Virus record (IMG/VR): IMGVR_UViG_3300030390_000715
Span: 32,001 to 96,000 of that record
Direction: 5' to 3' (one strand)
DNA from: a virus
Length of the DNA stretch: 64,000 nt
Every line of letters begins with the position of its first letter. Position 1 is the first letter of the stretch. A program made the position numbers and the translations under genes. Below the pieces are notes generated by a model that was not told the DNA's origin, made no database searches, and saw only the letters and a program-made list of their open reading frames with translations. Shown here one piece after another: positions 14,532-58,915 of the stretch.

Positions 14532-14595
14532 AGTGACCCAGTCTTTTGATTGGGTCACTCGTTTCTGTTGACAATAACTTCCAATACGATATAAT
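14532..14595 (+). promoter_or_regulatory. Stem-loop plus sigma70 promoter (PeSL-like)
   Basis: AGTGACCCAGTC-TTTT-GATTGGGTCACT, then TTGACA(14568)-16-TATAAT. Confidence 0.75.
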
Positions 14596-14983: not shown

Positions 14984-15024
14984 TTGACAACCACCGTCGA
15001 TATGATATAATAGCACTTCATTAA
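14984..15024 (+). promoter_or_regulatory. Early promoter with ACTTCATT element
   Basis: TTGACA-16-TATAAT-AGCACTTCATTAA. Confidence 0.8.
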
Positions 15025-15246: not shown

Positions 15247-15903
15247 ATGAAAAAATTATCAATTGAACATATCGAAGCTGTAATCACTTCGCAAATGAGC
15301 AACCTAGCAGATGCTTGGGACAGCGCCGCAAAGCGTAAAGATACGCAAAGGCAGATGTCTTTAACTGATTCTGGCATGGAGTTGAGCATGTTATTAGATA
15401 CTTTAAAGCAAAAAGCTAGGAACTCGGGAGAGTCATGATGATAAAAGATGATGTAGAACTTTGCAAATGGTTACGCGATAATTCTAGCGGTATTTATCGC
15501 CCAAGCGCACTAGCGGCTAACAGGATAGAAGAGTTGTTAGTCCTAGTGTCAAAACTAGACGATATTTTCATAGCTCTAGAGAAGCTAAAAAACGATGACG
15601 AAGAAGGTGTATATTGGGGTCGTGATCAGGATATCTATAACATTGCTATTGACGATGTTATTCATTTTATAAGGGGAGAGTACAGTAGAGGGTTTTTTAA
15701 CAACTCGGAGAAAAATGATGACTAGAACTACCAAAAAAAATCCAAAGGACTTTAATGGCGGTGGTTGTCGAGAGTATTGGTCAAATAGACCACACAACAA
15801 AGGTGGAAGTGCCAGCATAGGTAAATACCAAAAGAGCAGAACCGCAAGAACGGAAAGGCGATTAGCCAAAGCAAAAACAGGAGAAAGTGATGGAACTAAT
15901 TAG
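15247..15903 (+). other. Three small hypothetical cassette genes
   Basis: Coupled ORFs 15247-15438, 15435-15725 and 15715-15903. Confidence 0.55.
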
Positions 15904-16141
15904 AGACGAAGAGATACTAAAGTTTTCGAAACAGAATTTAATCTTTACAAGGGATAATTCTGGGGAACTTGAGCTGTCAAGAGTGCTATGTGATGTTGAT
16001 AATGTTGCCCTTAGTGTTGGTTATGTTGGCGGTAATGTTGGTTATGTTGGCGGTAATGTTGATAATGTTCACGGTGGTGTTCGTTATGTTGAAGGTAATG
16101 TTGGCGGAAAGACAAACAGGGAGAATTTGAAGCCAGAGTAA
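15890..16141 (+). CDS. Gly/Val/Asn heptad-repeat protein, paralog of 56224-56682
   Basis: EIL-F-K-NL-FT...VLCDV, then VGGNVGY repeats. Confidence 0.65.
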   Translation: MELIRDEEILKFSKQNLIFTRDNSGELELSRVLCDVDNVALSVGYVGGNVGYVGGNVDNVHGGVRYVEGNVGGKTNRENLKPE

Positions 16142-16222
16142 GAAAGTTGCCCATTCCTTTCACTTTTGCTAAGACATACGAAACAGTTCTGGAGAGCTTA
16201 AACTAACTAATCTGAGGAGAGA

Positions 16223-16477
16223 GTGATGAAGGAATATGTAATAGGAACAGCAGTTTTTATAGTCAAAAGAGGGTCAATGACTTGTCGTGCGCTTGATCCA
16301 GTTGCGTATTTTTCAAGACGTAGCAAAGCCGAGGCTTTTATCGCTAAAGATCGGAAATTCTATAATGGCGATTTGGGGGTTTCTGCCAAAGATTATGTGT
16401 ATCAAATAGAAATCATTCCACTAGACAATACATATTCGGAGATATCAGCGTCGCAGATACCTTATAGGAGAAAGTGA
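16223..16477 (+). CDS. Hypothetical cassette protein
   Basis: GGAGAGAGTGATG junction. Confidence 0.55.
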   Translation: MMKEYVIGTAVFIVKRGSMTCRALDPVAYFSRRSKAEAFIAKDRKFYNGDLGVSAKDYVYQIEIIPLDNTYSEISASQIPYRRK

Positions 16478-16667
16478 AGATGACAAATGAAAATAATGAA
16501 ACAAATGCAACTGAATTTGATAACTGCACATTTACTGGCGTAGAAATTGAATTAAGGTGTCTTAAAACAGCCCTTGAAAATATGTTAGTAGCGGTGAAGA
16601 AGATTTCGACCTTTAATAATAACGAAGATGATAGATGGCGATGACGCCCGAAAAACAGGAGAAAGTG

Positions 16668-17036
16668 ATGCGAGACATTAAATTTAGGCAGTGGGATAAA
16701 AGAAATAAACGGTTTCATTATTTTGGGTTTACTTTAGACGATTACTTCGAATTTACCTCGCCAGTAAGCCCCTGTAGGAAAAATTACCCAGTATCACAAT
16801 ACACTGGCTTAAAGGACTCAAAAGGCGTTGAGATTTATGAGGGTGATGTTGTCAACTCAAGACATCTTTCTCTGGCTGAGGTGGTTTTCTCAAAGAAAGC
16901 CGCGAAATTTTGCATACAAATCTATCGAATGAATCCTTACAAAGAAATGACTAAGCGAGTTTATAGTATTTTGTCGTGCGAAGTTGTAGGCAACATCTAC
17001 GAAAACCCTGAGCTATTAGGAGAAAGTAATGAATAA
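16668..17036 (+). CDS. YopX family protein
   Basis: IKFRQWD...QYTGLKD..G.EIYEGD...VVGNIYENPELL. Confidence 0.9.
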   Translation: MRDIKFRQWDKRNKRFHYFGFTLDDYFEFTSPVSPCRKNYPVSQYTGLKDSKGVEIYEGDVVNSRHLSLAEVVFSKKAAKFCIQIYRMNPYKEMTKRVYSILSCEVVGNIYENPELLGESNE

Positions 17037-17229
17037 GGCCATATTGGAGCCAAATGTGGAGCGTACTCCAAGCGATCTCGAACTGCTTAGGCAAGGAAAA
17101 ATTAGAGCAGTCGGAAAAGTCAGGGCCAGAAAATTAAAGCGCAAAGGAGTTTCATGTTGGTGGTCACCTGAATTAAATAGCCGAGTAAGGGCAGGATTAA
17201 TTAAAGGAGAAAGTGATGCGAGAAATTAA
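17029..17229 (+). CDS. Small basic hypothetical protein
   Basis: Junction motif at both ends. Confidence 0.5.
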   Translation: MNKAILEPNVERTPSDLELLRQGKIRAVGKVRARKLKRKGVSCWWSPELNSRVRAGLIKGESDARN

Positions 17230-17566
17230 ATTTAGAGCGTGGCATAGAGGTGCTGAGGAATTTTGTGAGGGCTTAACATCTAATATGTTTCAGTGGAGAG
17301 AAGATGGGCAACCCATAACACTTATGCAATACACCGGACTCAAAGATGCTAATGGTGTTGAGATGTACGAGGGTGATGTTCTTACTGCACAGAAAGGCTC
17401 TTACTCTGGGAAGTCCCTACCTATCAAGGGGGCATTAGAAGTCCACGGAATACATTGGTTTATTAACACAGGTGATATCCTAACGTATCTAGGGGGCGTC
17501 AGAAACATAAAAGTAATTGGCAACATATACGAAAACCCAGAACTAATCCGAGGAGATACAAAATGA
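17216..17566 (+). CDS. YopX family protein
   Basis: IKFRAW...MQYTGLKD..G.EMYEGD...VIGNIYENPEL. Confidence 0.9.
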   Translation: MREIKFRAWHRGAEEFCEGLTSNMFQWREDGQPITLMQYTGLKDANGVEMYEGDVLTAQKGSYSGKSLPIKGALEVHGIHWFINTGDILTYLGGVRNIKVIGNIYENPELIRGDTK

Positions 17567-17844
17567 TTGAACTAGAACAGATTGCAAAACAAGCCAAATC
17601 GTCAATAGTTGCCGCTGAAAAGCTTAGTGCATTGGACGATCTTCGTGTCGAGTACCTTGGTAAGAAAGGTAGGCTAACAGGCCTTCTTAAAGGTCTAGGC
17701 AGATTGTCGGCTGAAGAACGCCCGGCAGAGGGCGCTAAAATAAATGATGTCAAACAAAGCCTACAAGAGCTTATTGGGCAGCGAAAAGCTTATCTTGAGA
17801 GTATCGACCTGGATGCCACTTATACGCAAACCCAGAACTATTAG
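17563..17844 (+). CDS. Stand-alone N-terminal tRNA-binding arm of Phe-tRNA synthetase alpha subunit (captured fragment)
   Basis: LDDLRVEYLGKKG-LT-LLKGLG-LSAEERPA-GAKIN-VK matches the PheS N-terminal domain; no catalytic domain. Confidence 0.85.
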   Translation: MIELEQIAKQAKSSIVAAEKLSALDDLRVEYLGKKGRLTGLLKGLGRLSAEERPAEGAKINDVKQSLQELIGQRKAYLESIDLDATYTQTQNY

Positions 17845-17850
17845 GAGAAA

Positions 17851-18057
17851 GTGATGGAAAACCTACGTTTAACTTATATTAATTTTTACACTTACAAAGG
17901 GTGGACTTTTGAATGGAAAAAAGACTGGCCTGTTGGCCCTTGGCCTTGTAAAAAAGACTTGGAGTTAAGGGCAAAAGCAGGTAGAAAATTCTGGGATATG
18001 TTTCAAGAATTCTCCGAATTAAGCGACGAGGAACAAGAACAGTACAGGGTTTTTTAA
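17851..18057 (+). CDS. Hypothetical cassette protein
   Basis: Exact GGAGAAAGTGATG junction. Confidence 0.55.
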   Translation: MMENLRLTYINFYTYKGWTFEWKKDWPVGPWPCKKDLELRAKAGRKFWDMFQEFSELSDEEQEQYRVF

Positions 18058-18190
18058 CAACTAGGAGAATGTGCTTATTTCATGCCCCGTCAGGTCTAAA
18101 GTGTGGTTATAGTGTTGTAAATGTAATATTTGTTTGCTATAATGATCTTGTCATCGGGAGATGGCGCAACTATCTTAAAGGAATACAAAA

Positions 18191-18460
18191 ATGAATACTG
18201 CAAAAGACTTTGAAGTACTAATTACGTATAAGAGCGGACACAGTGAGATAGCTATAATTCCACTGACCCAGTACTGCTCGGAAATAGAAACACTACAGGG
18301 CAAACTGATGAAATACTGCATAAACACGAAAGACTATGAAGTACTAATTACGTATAAGAGTGGACACCGTGAGATAGCTATAATTCCACTGACCCAGTAC
18401 TCCTCAGAAATAGAAACACTACAGTCAGAAGGTCGGCTCGTAAGTATGGAGATTTTATAA
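18191..18460 (+). CDS. Hypothetical protein with internal 126-bp-period duplication
   Basis: D(F/Y)EVLITYKSGHxEIAIIPLTQYxSEIETLQ twice. Confidence 0.6.
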   Translation: MNTAKDFEVLITYKSGHSEIAIIPLTQYCSEIETLQGKLMKYCINTKDYEVLITYKSGHREIAIIPLTQYSSEIETLQSEGRLVSMEIL

Positions 18461-26557: not shown

Positions 26558-27769
26558 ATGAAATCATTTAAAACTGTAATAGAATCTGTATCGCAAAGAG
26601 AACTAGACGACCTCGAGAAATTCGGGGACAGACTACTTAACAAATTTGACATCGATATAGAATTCACTCGACACTTCGCCGATCGTCTTAATGATAAGAG
26701 GAATAAGCCTGCTATTGACGTAGAAGAGCTAAAAACTCTATTCAAAAAGATGGCAGATAATAAAGGCAAGAAGATCAAAAAGCATGGTAACTCTGAAGTT
26801 ATTCTAAAAGATATGCAGGCTGATCTTAATCTACCTGTCGTGATTAACTGGAAGAACGGTGAGTTCGAAGTTGTTAACAAAACTATTATGAGAAAGAAGG
26901 GTTTTAAATCTCCTGACCCTATGCTAAAATACGAGTCTGTCGAAGAAGAGCGGAACTATCGCAAAGAATACGATAACTACCATAAAGACCCAATTCAAGT
27001 AAAAAGACGCGCAAAGAGAAATGAAGCGCGTCGAAGCTTACGCGGTAGAAAAGACTTGACGGATGATAAGGATGTGCATCATAAAGATAACGATCCAATG
27101 AACAACGATCCATCAAACTTAGCTATAGTAACACAACACTATAATCGCAGAGAACCGAGACTTCGCAAAGAGGAAACCGCTACAGTGAAAACTATACAGG
27201 ACATCATCAAAGAGTCAGGAGCGCGACGATTGACCAATCGCTTAAAGAAGGGCGGTGTTGATCTTGACAAACGAGCGAAAGAACGTGCCGCTAGTCATGC
27301 CGCATTAGTAAAGAAGTATGCGAGTGATAAGAAGGAAGAAGTCGATGAAATGAAAGACGATCCTTGTTGGAAAGATCACGAAATGGTCGGGCACAAGATG
27401 AAGAATGGTAAAAAAGTACCTAATTGTGTACCCAAAGAATCTGTTAAAGAAGCTCGAAGTATAAAGATTGCTAAGGGTGATAAAACTCGTACCGTTAATA
27501 AGCAAGAGCTATCTACATACAAGCAGATGGGCTGGAAAGTAGTCGCTGAATCTGCTCTTCTTGACGAAGAAACATTTTACATTGATTTTCTGAATAAGAA
27601 AAAGGGATTTAAACAAGATAGGATTAAGTTTAAATCTCACGATGCCGCAGTAAAATGGGCTAAGAAAAACATGGATAAGTTTAACAGCGATATGATAAAA
27701 ACAGAAAGTGTTAACCTTGAAGTCGAACGGGATTTCTTTGCTATTAGAGAAGCGACGAAGAAAAATTAA
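26558..27769 (+). CDS. Multi-domain putative virion polyprotein (RegB/RelE-like domain + HNH-like motif + small domains)
   Basis: FTRHFADR; DVHHKDNDPMNN..SNL....N; repeated (I/L/V)xE linkers. Confidence 0.5.
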   Translation: MKSFKTVIESVSQRELDDLEKFGDRLLNKFDIDIEFTRHFADRLNDKRNKPAIDVEELKTLFKKMADNKGKKIKKHGNSEVILKDMQADLNLPVVINWKNGEFEVVNKTIMRKKGFKSPDPMLKYESVEEERNYRKEYDNYHKDPIQVKRRAKRNEARRSLRGRKDLTDDKDVHHKDNDPMNNDPSNLAIVTQHYNRREPRLRKEETATVKTIQDIIKESGARRLTNRLKKGGVDLDKRAKERAASHAALVKKYASDKKEEVDEMKDDPCWKDHEMVGHKMKNGKKVPNCVPKESVKEARSIKIAKGDKTRTVNKQELSTYKQMGWKVVAESALLDEETFYIDFLNKKKGFKQDRIKFKSHDAAVKWAKKNMDKFNSDMIKTESVNLEVERDFFAIREATKKN

Positions 27770-56987: not shown

Positions 56988-58915
56988 ATGAACCACAAAG
57001 AGCGTAGCTATCTAATCAAACAGGTTATTGACGCGGCAAAGTCTCATGCAAAGTGTGGAAACCTACACCACAAAAAATCCCATCAGCATTTAGATGGATG
57101 GATCTGTCCGGCTGAGACCGAGCTAGAAGCGGCTATTTATAAAGTGGAACTAATGTTACAGAAGGGAGAGCATAAAAGTAATGAGCATTTATAAGGTAAA
57201 ACTTACATATAGGTATTTTGATGTTGTTGATTTTTATGTTTTTGATGTTGTTGAGGTTGAAGCCGATAATGAGAAAGATGCGCTAAAAAAAGCGACTGAG
57301 CTTTTAGATGACGCGGATTACGAGAGTCTTGAAGATAGCAAAATACTTGAAGTCAACAACTAGGAGAAAGTCATGAGTAATACTAATACACCACAAGAAT
57401 TCATGGCCGCTTACGATATAAACAATAGTGACGGGTCTGCTACCCTTAATTTAATGAAGGCAGCTTTACTTCCAAGCTGGCGCGAAACCTTTAAAAAATT
57501 AGAAGCATCTAGCCAGTTAGAAAACAAAAAACGCCGAGTCAGAGCGGCAACAACAGGAGAAAGTTATGATACTAATTCTAAGTCCGAAAGATAGTCTGTC
57601 TAAGTTGACGCTAGAGAACGTCGAGTCTTTTGCTCAAGAGGGTAATACGCTTTTAGTAGTGTTTGAAGACGGTCGGGCACGAAACTATCCTCTCGTACAT
57701 TTGTGGTATTACCAAAGCACCACCAAGCTACTAGGAGAAAGTGGTGAAAATAACAGATGACGAAACTTTGCAGGAATTTATCAGCAATCATTTAGACGTA
57801 CAAGATTTTGGTTTTTTAGTTATAGCCAATGATGACTCGTTAAACCATCAGGCTTTAAGCCTTATACGTAGCAAGCTAAAAGCGTTCCTTGAAGGAGAAA
57901 ATGATGAAAGATAAAAAACTTATAAAAGCGGCAAAGAAGTTAGAGGATGCGGCACAAGAGTATAGGTACTTGCATCAGAAAGGGAGTGAAAGGGACGCTC
58001 TTATCTGGATACAAAACAACACAACTGGCGAGGGTGTTTTTATAGCTGACAATTTAAACATGGAACTTATAAAGGCAAGGTATTGTTAATCAACAACTAG
58101 GAGAAAGTGATGGAAATTGATTTGATTGAACTGATTTTCTGGACGATATGCGTATCTGTAGTGGTAATGTGTATTGTGGAAATGATTAATAGCCCTAACA
58201 ACCCTAATGGGTATAAACATGATGATGCGCTACGCAAGTTATGCGGGGCTAACGTCCGTATAAGCTATGGTTTCAGATTTGTTACTTACGAAAGTTTGTG
58301 CGGTAAAAATAGAGTCGATTTTCCACTAGATAAAGACCTATTACGCCATATGAATAAAGACCTATTAGACTGTATGGAAACGATGCCCTGCTGTCCTTCA
58401 AAAGAATTTTCTCCACTTTATATAGAGTGGCAAGGAGAGAGATTTGTGTATGTGGGTTATTACGATGTGAATAATTTAGGTAGGGGTTCTGGAGATAAGG
58501 TAGTTGGAGAAAGGTATGGCAAACATTTTGGAGAGTATGGATATATGTCAGGAGAAAGTGATGAATAAGGAAAACAGCATAAAAAATGAATGGGACAGAC
58601 TCAAAAAAGAACACCCCGCGATTGTATCTGACGATGAAATGCAAGAAGCGCACGACTGCATTGAGCAACAAGCGCACGACTGCATTGAGCAACAAGTCAT
58701 TGATTACTGTAACCAGACTAATGTTAGCGATGGCAGTACGGCAAGCTACTATGAATAAATTAATAATAGCTAAAATATTTTTGGGGTTAGCTTTAGGGCT
58801 TGTGGTAGCTGGTGTTACATTTCCTGATTTTGGGTTGGTAGAGCTTATTGTTTTTAGTGCATTTACTCTGGGGCAATTTGCTGTATACCTAAAACTGAAA
58901 AGGTGGAAACGATGA
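56988..58915 (+). other. Array of about eight small cassette genes
   Basis: ORFs at 56988, 57181, 57373, 57566, 57901, 58107, 58561 and 58751, most joined by GGAGAAAGT-type junctions. Confidence 0.6.

Follow-up and report, generated by a model that had tools for sequence, protein, structure and literature searches.

Free-standing tRNA-binding domains related to synthetase appendages are represented by the Trbp111 and Arc1p types. Complete aminoacyl-tRNA synthetases were reportedly described by Al-Shayeb et al. in 2020 in huge phages with genomes >200 kb, and Millard et al. are said to have noted host genes in the hyperplastic region of cyanomyoviruses in 2009. Here, we examine a 64,000-nt stretch of viral DNA (the window), which comprises bases 32001–96000 of the 152,753-bp IMG/VR record IMGVR_UViG_3300030390_000715 (CheckV completeness 91%). 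The window carries a 93-aa chimeric open reading frame (ORF) wherein residues 1–85 constitute the N-terminal helical hairpin of the phenylalanyl-tRNA synthetase (PheRS) alpha chain, PheS, and residues 86–93 (TYTQTQNY) are read out of frame from a remnant of a yopX gene. We judge that this ORF is probably a young neutral or near-neutral passenger, captured recently by illegitimate recombination and without a selected function.

The product is most directly compared with the alpha-1 coiled coil of bacterial PheS (PF02912; Protein Data Bank (PDB) entry 3pco chain A, residues 3–86), with which it shares the same predicted hairpin, and 81 of its first 85 residues are identical to those of a Porticoccaceae PheS. 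Unlike bacterial PheS, it is phage-encoded and stands alone, without the linker and the PF01409 catalytic domain. It also has a frame-shifted 8-aa tail, and the allele in the window has Glu in the ERPAAG tip motif. At the level of the locus, the comparison is with genes of host origin that T4-related phages carry in their variable (hyperplastic) regions; the genomes of these phages gain foreign DNA by replacement or addition via illegitimate recombination according to Petrov et al. (PMC2993671). The chimeric ORF likewise has a T4-related carrier and a place in a mosaic cluster of small ORFs, and it appears to have been acquired in the same mode. In contrast to such genes, it holds a 257-bp piece of an essential housekeeping gene rather than a whole metabolic gene, the donor sequence still agrees with it at 98% of positions, and both junctions are resolved to single bases. 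That host DNA can be captured in mosaic parts of T4-like genomes is already known, and the present locus adds an instance. With the synthetases of huge phages the ORF has in common that a host-type translation gene resides in a phage genome, but here the gene is a noncatalytic fragment in a 153-kb phage without tRNA genes. The likeness to Trbp111- and Arc1p-type proteins is one of idea only, in that a functional product would be a small binder of the outside corner of tRNA, and no homology is claimed.

The chimeric ORF, its carrier, and its donor

The chimeric ORF matches PF02912 (Phe_tRNA-synt_N) with an E value of 4.3e-23 and 81.5 bits (cut-off 22.3), and its residues 20–85 align with profile positions 2–67 of 69. 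No other family was found in the Pfam scan. A search of solved structures matched six distinct PDB sequences, all of them PheRS alpha chains, with 3pco_A at the top (residues 3–86, E 1.8e-16). The AlphaFold2 model (8-row alignment, mean pLDDT 86.2) places helices at residues 2–47 and 53–80 and packs them as a hairpin, and together with the structure matches it agrees with the all-helical hairpin or coiled-coil fold of PF02912, whereas the tail has pLDDT values <50. The class II catalytic core PF01409 is absent from the ORF, as judged by the Pfam scan, by the stop after residue 93, and by the end of host homology at 17818. No second pheS-like sequence was found in the phage genome, and the next gene is not pheT but ORF68, which lacks a family match, although no genome-wide search for pheT was made. 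An earlier note on this DNA had described the ORF as the N-domain of PheS only and had proposed a profile search with PF02912, and the results of that search and of the PDB comparison bear the description out.

The carrier is, by its marker genes, a T4-related phage of ~153 kb. It encodes a Gp23 major capsid protein (PF07068, E 1.6e-146) and gp32 (PF08804, E 1.8e-40), along with both ribonucleotide reductase subunits, DNA ligase, glucosyltransferase-like proteins, and sugar-nucleotide enzymes. No gene for a tRNA or a tmRNA was found in the carrier genome; in many T4-type phages of similar size, several tRNA genes are present.

To locate the donor, the DNA was compared by BLAST with 202 genomes of the family to which genome L005 belongs, and 70 of these gave matches. 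The two best, G081 (98%) and G029 (96%), cover exactly the same segment, which holds pheS codons 1–85 plus one upstream base, and the next best reach 82% and 81%. In an ungapped comparison over the 257 nt, 251 positions are identical in G081 and 247 in G029, and similarity collapses just outside both limits. The initial searches had returned PheS proteins only 85–87% identical, and a search of longer proteins then gave the match at 81 of 85 residues. The PheS of G081 equals the protein P0129 (337/337 residues), which occurs on 179 contigs and is labeled Porticoccaceae bacterium UBA1117 by one source. Other PheS records of the same set are titled as SAR92 clade, HTCC2207, and Porticoccaceae metagenome-assembled genomes. 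When window positions 1–60000 were compared in three pieces with G081 and G029, the 257-bp stretch was the sole match.

These matches place the donor among the Porticoccaceae (SAR92-related bacteria), and this bacterium is probably also the host of the phage. The transfer ran from host to phage because pheS is full-length, cellular, and nested among Porticoccaceae orthologs, whereas the phage holds the first 85 codons only. Two proposals of the earlier note are thereby upheld: that the PheS piece was captured from a host, and that it serves as a marker of a gammaproteobacterial host, which can now be narrowed to the Porticoccaceae. Through this piece, an uncultured marine phage of ~153 kb from the T4-related group can be assigned a host by sequence. 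A literature search on SAR92 phages yielded a SAR92 virus that is a podovirus from a single-cell genome (PMC4611503).

The arrangement also occurs in independent metagenomes. A search of public runs with window positions 17000–18400 returned 20 rows from 13 studies that hold at least part of this stretch, six of them with at least half of the sampled words, and contigs from 4 of 24 listed runs were compared with the stretch. A 793-nt contig of run X2 covers 17064–17856 with 0 differences, and a 777-nt contig of run X4, from a different study, covers 17074–17850 with 2 differences; each of the two contigs crosses the left and the right junction. A second kind of pheS contig, found in all four runs over 17562–17810, has 34 differences in 249 positions, and its ends run into normal host sequence. 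This contig represents a co-occurring Porticoccaceae-type bacterium other than the donor species.

Junctions and mode of acquisition

On the left side, the sequence upstream of the ATG is dissimilar in host (..GTGATCAATA) and phage (..GAGGAGATACAAA). The 25-mer at 17542–17566, which comprises the last yopX-2 codons, the ribosome-binding site (RBS), and ATGA, is identical at 25 of 25 positions to positions 1–25 of L096, a locus from a 21-kb IMG/VR contig. There, the ATG after the shared 25-mer opens an unrelated 112-aa phage ORF that begins ATGACTAAA. The RBS spacer is therefore phage-native, since the identical 25-mer precedes an unrelated gene in a viral contig. The GAGGAGA RBS lies 7–8 nt 5′ of the ATG of the chimeric ORF, and this ATG overlaps the stop of yopX-2 as ATGA. 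Given the gene starts of host (ATGACTGAA) and window (ATGATTGAA), the left joint falls inside a shared AATGA, or inside AATGACT if the C-to-T change at 17567 arose later (5–7 nt of microhomology). The host coding sequence was grafted precisely onto a phage start codon and RBS. An RBS is indeed present, as the earlier note had stated, but it is a hijacked phage element and not the insert's own. Note that the result is an instantly expressible chimeric ORF, and the locus offers an unusually clean, base-resolved case of a phage acquiring host sequence.

On the right side, the host reads ..GATGCCA / AGCTCGCC and the window ..GATGCCA / CTTATACGCAAACCC. Here the host DNA abuts a yopX 3′ remnant, which supplies the 8-aa out-of-frame tail and the TAG stop. 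The remnant is 79% identical to the end of yopX-1 over 52 nt and reads ..YANPELLGESD in the yopX frame. It contains the second copy of a 20-mer whose first copy is the genuine 3′ coding end of yopX-2. The two copies differ at a single base (17827), and their positions and the one mismatch are as first reported, as is the continuation of the downstream copy as TTAGGAGAAAGT, found also at the yopX-1 end. With up to 3 mismatches allowed, the 20-mer occurs three times in the 64 kb, where ~0.02 occurrences are expected and none of 100 shuffled sequences held three copies, and in a repeat search the three copies could be lengthened to 52 nt. The statement that the PheS piece is bounded by these repeats does not hold on the left, where the repeat is 17 nt away across native phage sequence.

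We propose the following course of events. A T4-related phage would recently have taken 257 bp of the pheS 5′ end by illegitimate recombination. On one side, the host DNA would have been fused, via 5–7 nt of microhomology, to the start codon of a phage gene then located downstream of yopX-2, and on the other to the final ~35 nt of a yopX-type gene that immediately preceded ORF68. The host piece would most likely have replaced whatever lay between those two points. Such a replacement would extend the alternation of yopX, small ORF, and yopX that is still seen upstream. Repeat copy 2 may be a remnant of a third yopX paralog, or it may be a duplicate of the yopX-2 end. A replacement from the start codon after yopX-2 to the yopX-type end before ORF68 seems to fit the junctions better than the insertion into a duplicated yopX 3′ end that the earlier note had proposed, the left-hand 17 nt being phage-native.

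Other accounts of the DNA itself were weighed against such a capture. An assembly chimera of phage reads and co-occurring host reads might be suspected from the host-type pheS contig present in all four runs compared, but 34 of the 249 positions of that contig disagree with the phage copy, and separate contigs from two studies cross both junctions. A chimera is therefore excluded for practical purposes, its probability being negligible. Insertion of the host piece into the yopX-2 3′ end with a 20-bp target duplication, in which case a third yopX never existed, has more points to consider. Copy 2 agrees with the yopX-2 end at 19/20 positions and with the yopX-1 end at 16/20, only two YopX matches are found in the genome, and removal of the DNA between the repeats would restore an intact yopX-2 directly before ORF68. 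Against these stand the 17 nt of native phage DNA between repeat 1 and the ATG, which leave the host DNA with no repeat border on the left, as a transposon-type target duplication would not, and the resemblance of copy 2 beyond the 20-mer to the yopX-1 rather than the yopX-2 end. Moreover, the 19/20 identity is no proof of a recent duplication because an unrelated yopX contig of the same metagenomes has nearly the same 3′-end DNA (2 differences in 24 nt). The ORF list shows no transposase-like ORF in the insert, which is a bare gene fragment. On balance, we regard insertion with target duplication as unlikely. Finally, the fragment might act as DNA, recombining with pheS of the host in the role of a homology arm or attachment sequence, and 257 bp at 98% identity suffices for homologous recombination. 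However, no PF00589 tyrosine integrase match was found in the 91%-complete genome (other integrase families lay outside the search), and T4-related phages, to which the Gp23 and gp32 matches assign the carrier, are lytic. Integration at the pheS 5′ end would also go unrepaired by a fragment that stops after an out-of-frame tail and so cannot restore pheS. This attachment-site explanation was rejected as highly improbable.

Relatives, selection, and possible function

Searches for phage homologs returned little. In IMG/VR, none of the 50 candidate stretches obtained with exact peptide patterns was a relative, and a 9-sequence profile found one among 284 stretches. The latter is cellular DNA because a full-length pheS (331 aa) precedes pheT on its 8-kb contig. 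A tblastn search against 50,697 INPHARED phage records gave three weak matches (44–48% identical), two of which are unannotated Listeria records. The annotated one is found close to the beginning of its record, ~750 nt downstream of an IF-3 gene, and looks like flanking host DNA; an integrase is annotated in the same record. The sole PHROG match of the chimeric ORF is to a 339-position profile, which is the length of full PheS. A stand-alone PF02912 copy was found in no other phage record of IMG/VR or INPHARED, and no conserved phage family emerges from these collections. A full-text literature search on PF02912 found no phage work, as judged by titles and abstracts.

Short proteins with PF02912 only on long contigs (P0010, P0012, P0014, P0055, P0057, and others) were considered as phage homologs and rejected by inference. 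Among 20 of the 120 listed short PF02912 proteins, none has the tail of the chimeric ORF; most either extend into ordinary pheS sequence, are cut off inside it, or close with a few unrelated residues of the kind left by a frameshift. One protein of the European Nucleotide Archive (ENA), P0002, has 85 aa and is 85% identical with a different C-terminal end, and it could represent either a host gene with a frameshift or another capture.

The phage copy differs from that of G081 at six positions, four of them nonsynonymous and two synonymous (2.3% nucleotide divergence). These correspond to dN 0.021, dS 0.034, and omega 0.61 over 195 nonsynonymous and 60 synonymous sites, and distant host pairs gave omega values of 0.06–0.14 where dS was computable. 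The probability that at least 4 of 6 changes are nonsynonymous is 0.019 at an omega of 0.08, 0.08 at 0.14, and 0.85 at 1. A comparison with L005 (omega 0.084, dS ~1) had suggested long-term purifying selection, and this was rejected; because the much closer donor G081 exists, that value measures host–host divergence only. Of the changes, A56E is the sole one at a position invariant in all aligned host sequences. It lies in the ERPAAG motif at the start of helix 2, by the hairpin tip, and it is polymorphic among the phage contigs, as the X4 contig has the host C (Ala codon) at 17729. The capture is too young for a firm selection test, and the little signal present points to relaxed constraint rather than conservation.

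The ORF is probably translated because it lies in a compact cluster of small ORFs, its RBS is a hijacked phage element, and its start codon is coupled to the end of yopX-2. The nearest consensus promoter upstream, listed in Table 1, is followed on the + strand by no further site of at least 10/12 until 18115–18143. Between 15011 and 18115, no + strand promoter-like (at least 10/12) or terminator-like site was found, so that the ORF is not arranged as a moron cassette. Promoter-like sites are not enriched in the region (20 versus 15.4 ± 3.8 in shuffles). A second 12/12 sigma-70 consensus lies at 14568–14595, ~400 nt away from the first; both are just upstream of the small-ORF cluster, and the pair look like strong early promoters. 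In the RNA run X15, phage-identical contigs cover 16470–16690 and 18257–18424 and none lies on the chimeric ORF, and the contig over 17562–17810 is of host type with 34 differences, which says nothing either way on transcription of the ORF.

What such a product might do can be considered from solved PheRS–tRNA complexes (PMC8136816). The hairpin of the alpha chain extends to the elbow of a tRNA that sits on the opposite half of the tetramer, where the alpha-1 domain touches G19 and U20 of the D-loop and C56 and G57 of the T-loop. Each tRNA is contacted by all four chains; the contacts made by alpha-1 are said to vary. In the Mycobacterium tuberculosis complex of the same article, the residues that would correspond to the ERPAAG-tip region contact the D- and T-loops. 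An isolated hairpin should bind tRNA weakly at best because it is one of many contacts, with each tRNA touching four chains. The hairpin of the alpha chain is not known to be a subunit interface or to mediate subunit assembly, which makes a dominant-negative effect on PheRS improbable.

Two functional readings were set against a recent capture without selected function. In the first, the free-standing hairpin would be an expressed phage factor that acts on the elbow of tRNA-Phe, either shielding the tRNA from a defense or perturbing PheRS, much as the earlier note had envisaged. The domain is complete and is confidently predicted to form a helical hairpin by itself, the alpha-1 domain contacts both loops in the solved complexes, the ORF has a strong phage RBS with an in-frame start, and the arrangement persists in runs of different studies. 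Nevertheless, the stand-alone domain is a singleton among phage records and the capture is recent, with mostly nonsynonymous changes, which leave the proposals of tRNA shielding and of a dominant negative unsupported. A56E adds a negative charge in a conserved tip motif and is still polymorphic, binding is expected to be weak, subunit assembly is presumably unaffected, and the phage has no tRNA genes. We consider this reading improbable. In the second and more elaborate reading, to which we give less credence again, a T4-like phage of SAR92-type bacteria would have domesticated the hairpin as an early protein that binds tRNA-Phe or PheRS-bound tRNA, that protects from a tRNA-directed defense or retunes translation, and in which the charge-changing substitutions E12K and A56E are adaptive and not a sign of decay.

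A young passenger without selected function, with a product that would be a stable helical hairpin with a disordered 8-aa tail, therefore remains our preferred interpretation. The earlier note had held that a lack of phage homologs under purifying selection, together with a lack of expression, would speak for a neutral passenger. The findings come close to this (no stand-alone homolog in the phage records searched, mostly nonsynonymous substitutions, and no RNA contig over the ORF), although statistical power is low. Several observations weigh against our interpretation. Over the same 85 codons, G081 and G029 differ by two nonsynonymous and two synonymous changes, which is indistinguishable from the phage branch at the low power of the comparison (Fisher p = 1.0). 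The phage states at 17567 and 17694 are common to more distant hosts, and these two differences may have been inherited from an unsampled donor. Ile2 and Leu78 are found in other Porticoccaceae PheS proteins, and position 12 is variable among them. The arrangement is present in runs listed under 2014 and 2018 from different studies and was thus not instantly purged, and the ORF is intact and well positioned for translation. As for a replacement, the ancestral arrangement was not found in relatives of yopX-2 or ORF68 or across the right junction. Among the best 80 of 450 IMG/VR relatives of yopX-2, identity does not exceed 51%, an exact 26-mer across the junction of yopX remnant and ORF68 had no match in JGI metagenomes, and no contig joining 17545 to 17841, as from an empty site or deletion, was seen in the four runs, which is not evidence of absence because contigs drop rare variants. 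The finding does not amount to evidence of a novel function in phages and is of practical use in marking the host and in giving a snapshot of capture.

Neighboring genes and recurring gene boundaries

The genes at 16.6–18.1 kb of the window are all on the + strand and closely packed (Table 1). The two flanking yopX genes are the only YopX matches in the 152,753-bp genome, with scores of 71.1 bits for yopX-2 and 68.8 bits for yopX-1 against a cut-off of 22.4.

Table 1. Positions of the chimeric ORF, its differences from the donor-type sequence, and neighboring features in the window.
Feature	Position	Strand	Basis or remark
Chimeric ORF, 93 aa, ATG start, TAG stop	17563–17844	+	Sequence, ORF list
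Host-derived segment, 257 bp (pheS codons 1–85 plus one upstream base)	17562–17818	+	G081/G029 DNA matches
Residue 2: Ile in phage, Thr in G081	17567		
Residue 12: Lys in phage, Glu in G081 (E12K)	17596		
Synonymous difference	17694		
Residue 56: Glu in phage, Ala in G081 (A56E)	17729		
Residue 78: Leu in phage, Phe in G081	17794		
Synonymous difference	17811		
Candidate promoter, sigma-70-like consensus, 12/12	14984–15011	+	Consensus match only; candidate start of the transcription unit of the chimeric ORF
yopX-1, 133 aa	16635–17036	+	YopX PF09643, E 5.7e-19; 3′ end holds the most diverged repeat copy
Third repeat copy, at the yopX-1 end	16996–17015	+	Pattern match, 3 mismatches
Small ORF between the yopX genes, 66 aa	17029–17229	+	ORF list; no Pfam or PHROG match
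yopX-2, 117 aa, intact	17213–17566	+	YopX PF09643, E 1.1e-19; stop overlaps the ATG of the chimeric ORF
Repeat copy 1, genuine 3′ coding end of yopX-2 (..IYENPEL..)	17526–17545	+	Sequence, repeat search
Phage-native spacer with RBS GAGGAGA	17546–17562	+	25/25 identity with L096; unlike the host upstream sequence
yopX-type 3′ end remnant	17819–17856	+	Contains repeat copy 2 (17821–17840) and boundary motif AGGAGAAAGTGATG (17843–17856)
ORF68, small phage gene, 68 aa	17851–18057	+	ORF list; no Pfam or PHROG family match

Homologs of ORF68, 66–88% identical, are present in locus L002 and in loci L179–L184. L002 is apparently the same contig as L184 (4,464 nt), and the comparison of upstream sequences used the four loci with at least 90 nt upstream. 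In all four, the sequence upstream of the homolog is unlike the window, with a different gene in each and neither yopX nor pheS among them, and no yopX-end motif was found upstream of the homolog in these readable loci. ORF68 behaves as a mobile cassette placed behind differing genes in relatives, and these loci show the region to be highly mosaic, with gene-boundary motifs in common. In L002, the frame of the ORF68 homolog (1856–2061) is split where an A-run is one A shorter (GGAAAAAGACT versus GGAAAAAAGACT), which is probably either a homopolymer sequencing error or a real frameshift.

The 14-mer AGGAGAAAGTGATG, which combines an RBS with an overlapping stop and start and provides the RBS and start of ORF68, has six copies in the genome, four of them within window positions 15879–17856. 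The other copies lie at 58099–58564, and near variants mark gene boundaries in L002, L180, and L181. The motif may be a recombination hotspot that shuffles small genes. Window positions 15841–15895 and L002 positions 1810–1864 share a 55-nt gene boundary at 98% identity while the surrounding genes differ, which we interpret as the footprint of a mosaic exchange. L096 contains at 22–686 two tandem paralogous ORFs (112 and 109 aa) that both begin MTKRIID.MTAEQI and are each preceded by GGAGATACAAAATGA, a second recurring boundary motif in this phage group.

A 1,407-nt contig in runs X2, X4, and X15 carries a different yopX. Because it matches the window only in two conserved yopX blocks (16797–16852 and 17519–17542), a second yopX-bearing phage must co-occur with the carrier.

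Other small genes of the region have internal repeats. An 84-aa ORF at 15887–16141 contains a repeated VGYVGGN, the overlapping frame is also open, and it is seemingly a low-complexity small gene. An 89-aa ORF at 18191–18460, for which there is no family match, is a tandem duplication in which a unit of ~33 aa (K-D-F/Y-E-V-L-I-T-Y-K-S-G-H-...-E-I-E-T-L-Q) occurs twice, and its DNA is nearly repeated as well (18206–18300 versus 18335–18430). Further along the window, a 403-aa ORF at 26558–27769 has HNH-endonuclease-like PHROG matches (E ~1e-6). Its neighbors are two cytidyltransferase-like genes, and it is a candidate homing endonuclease within what may be a cluster for sugar modification.

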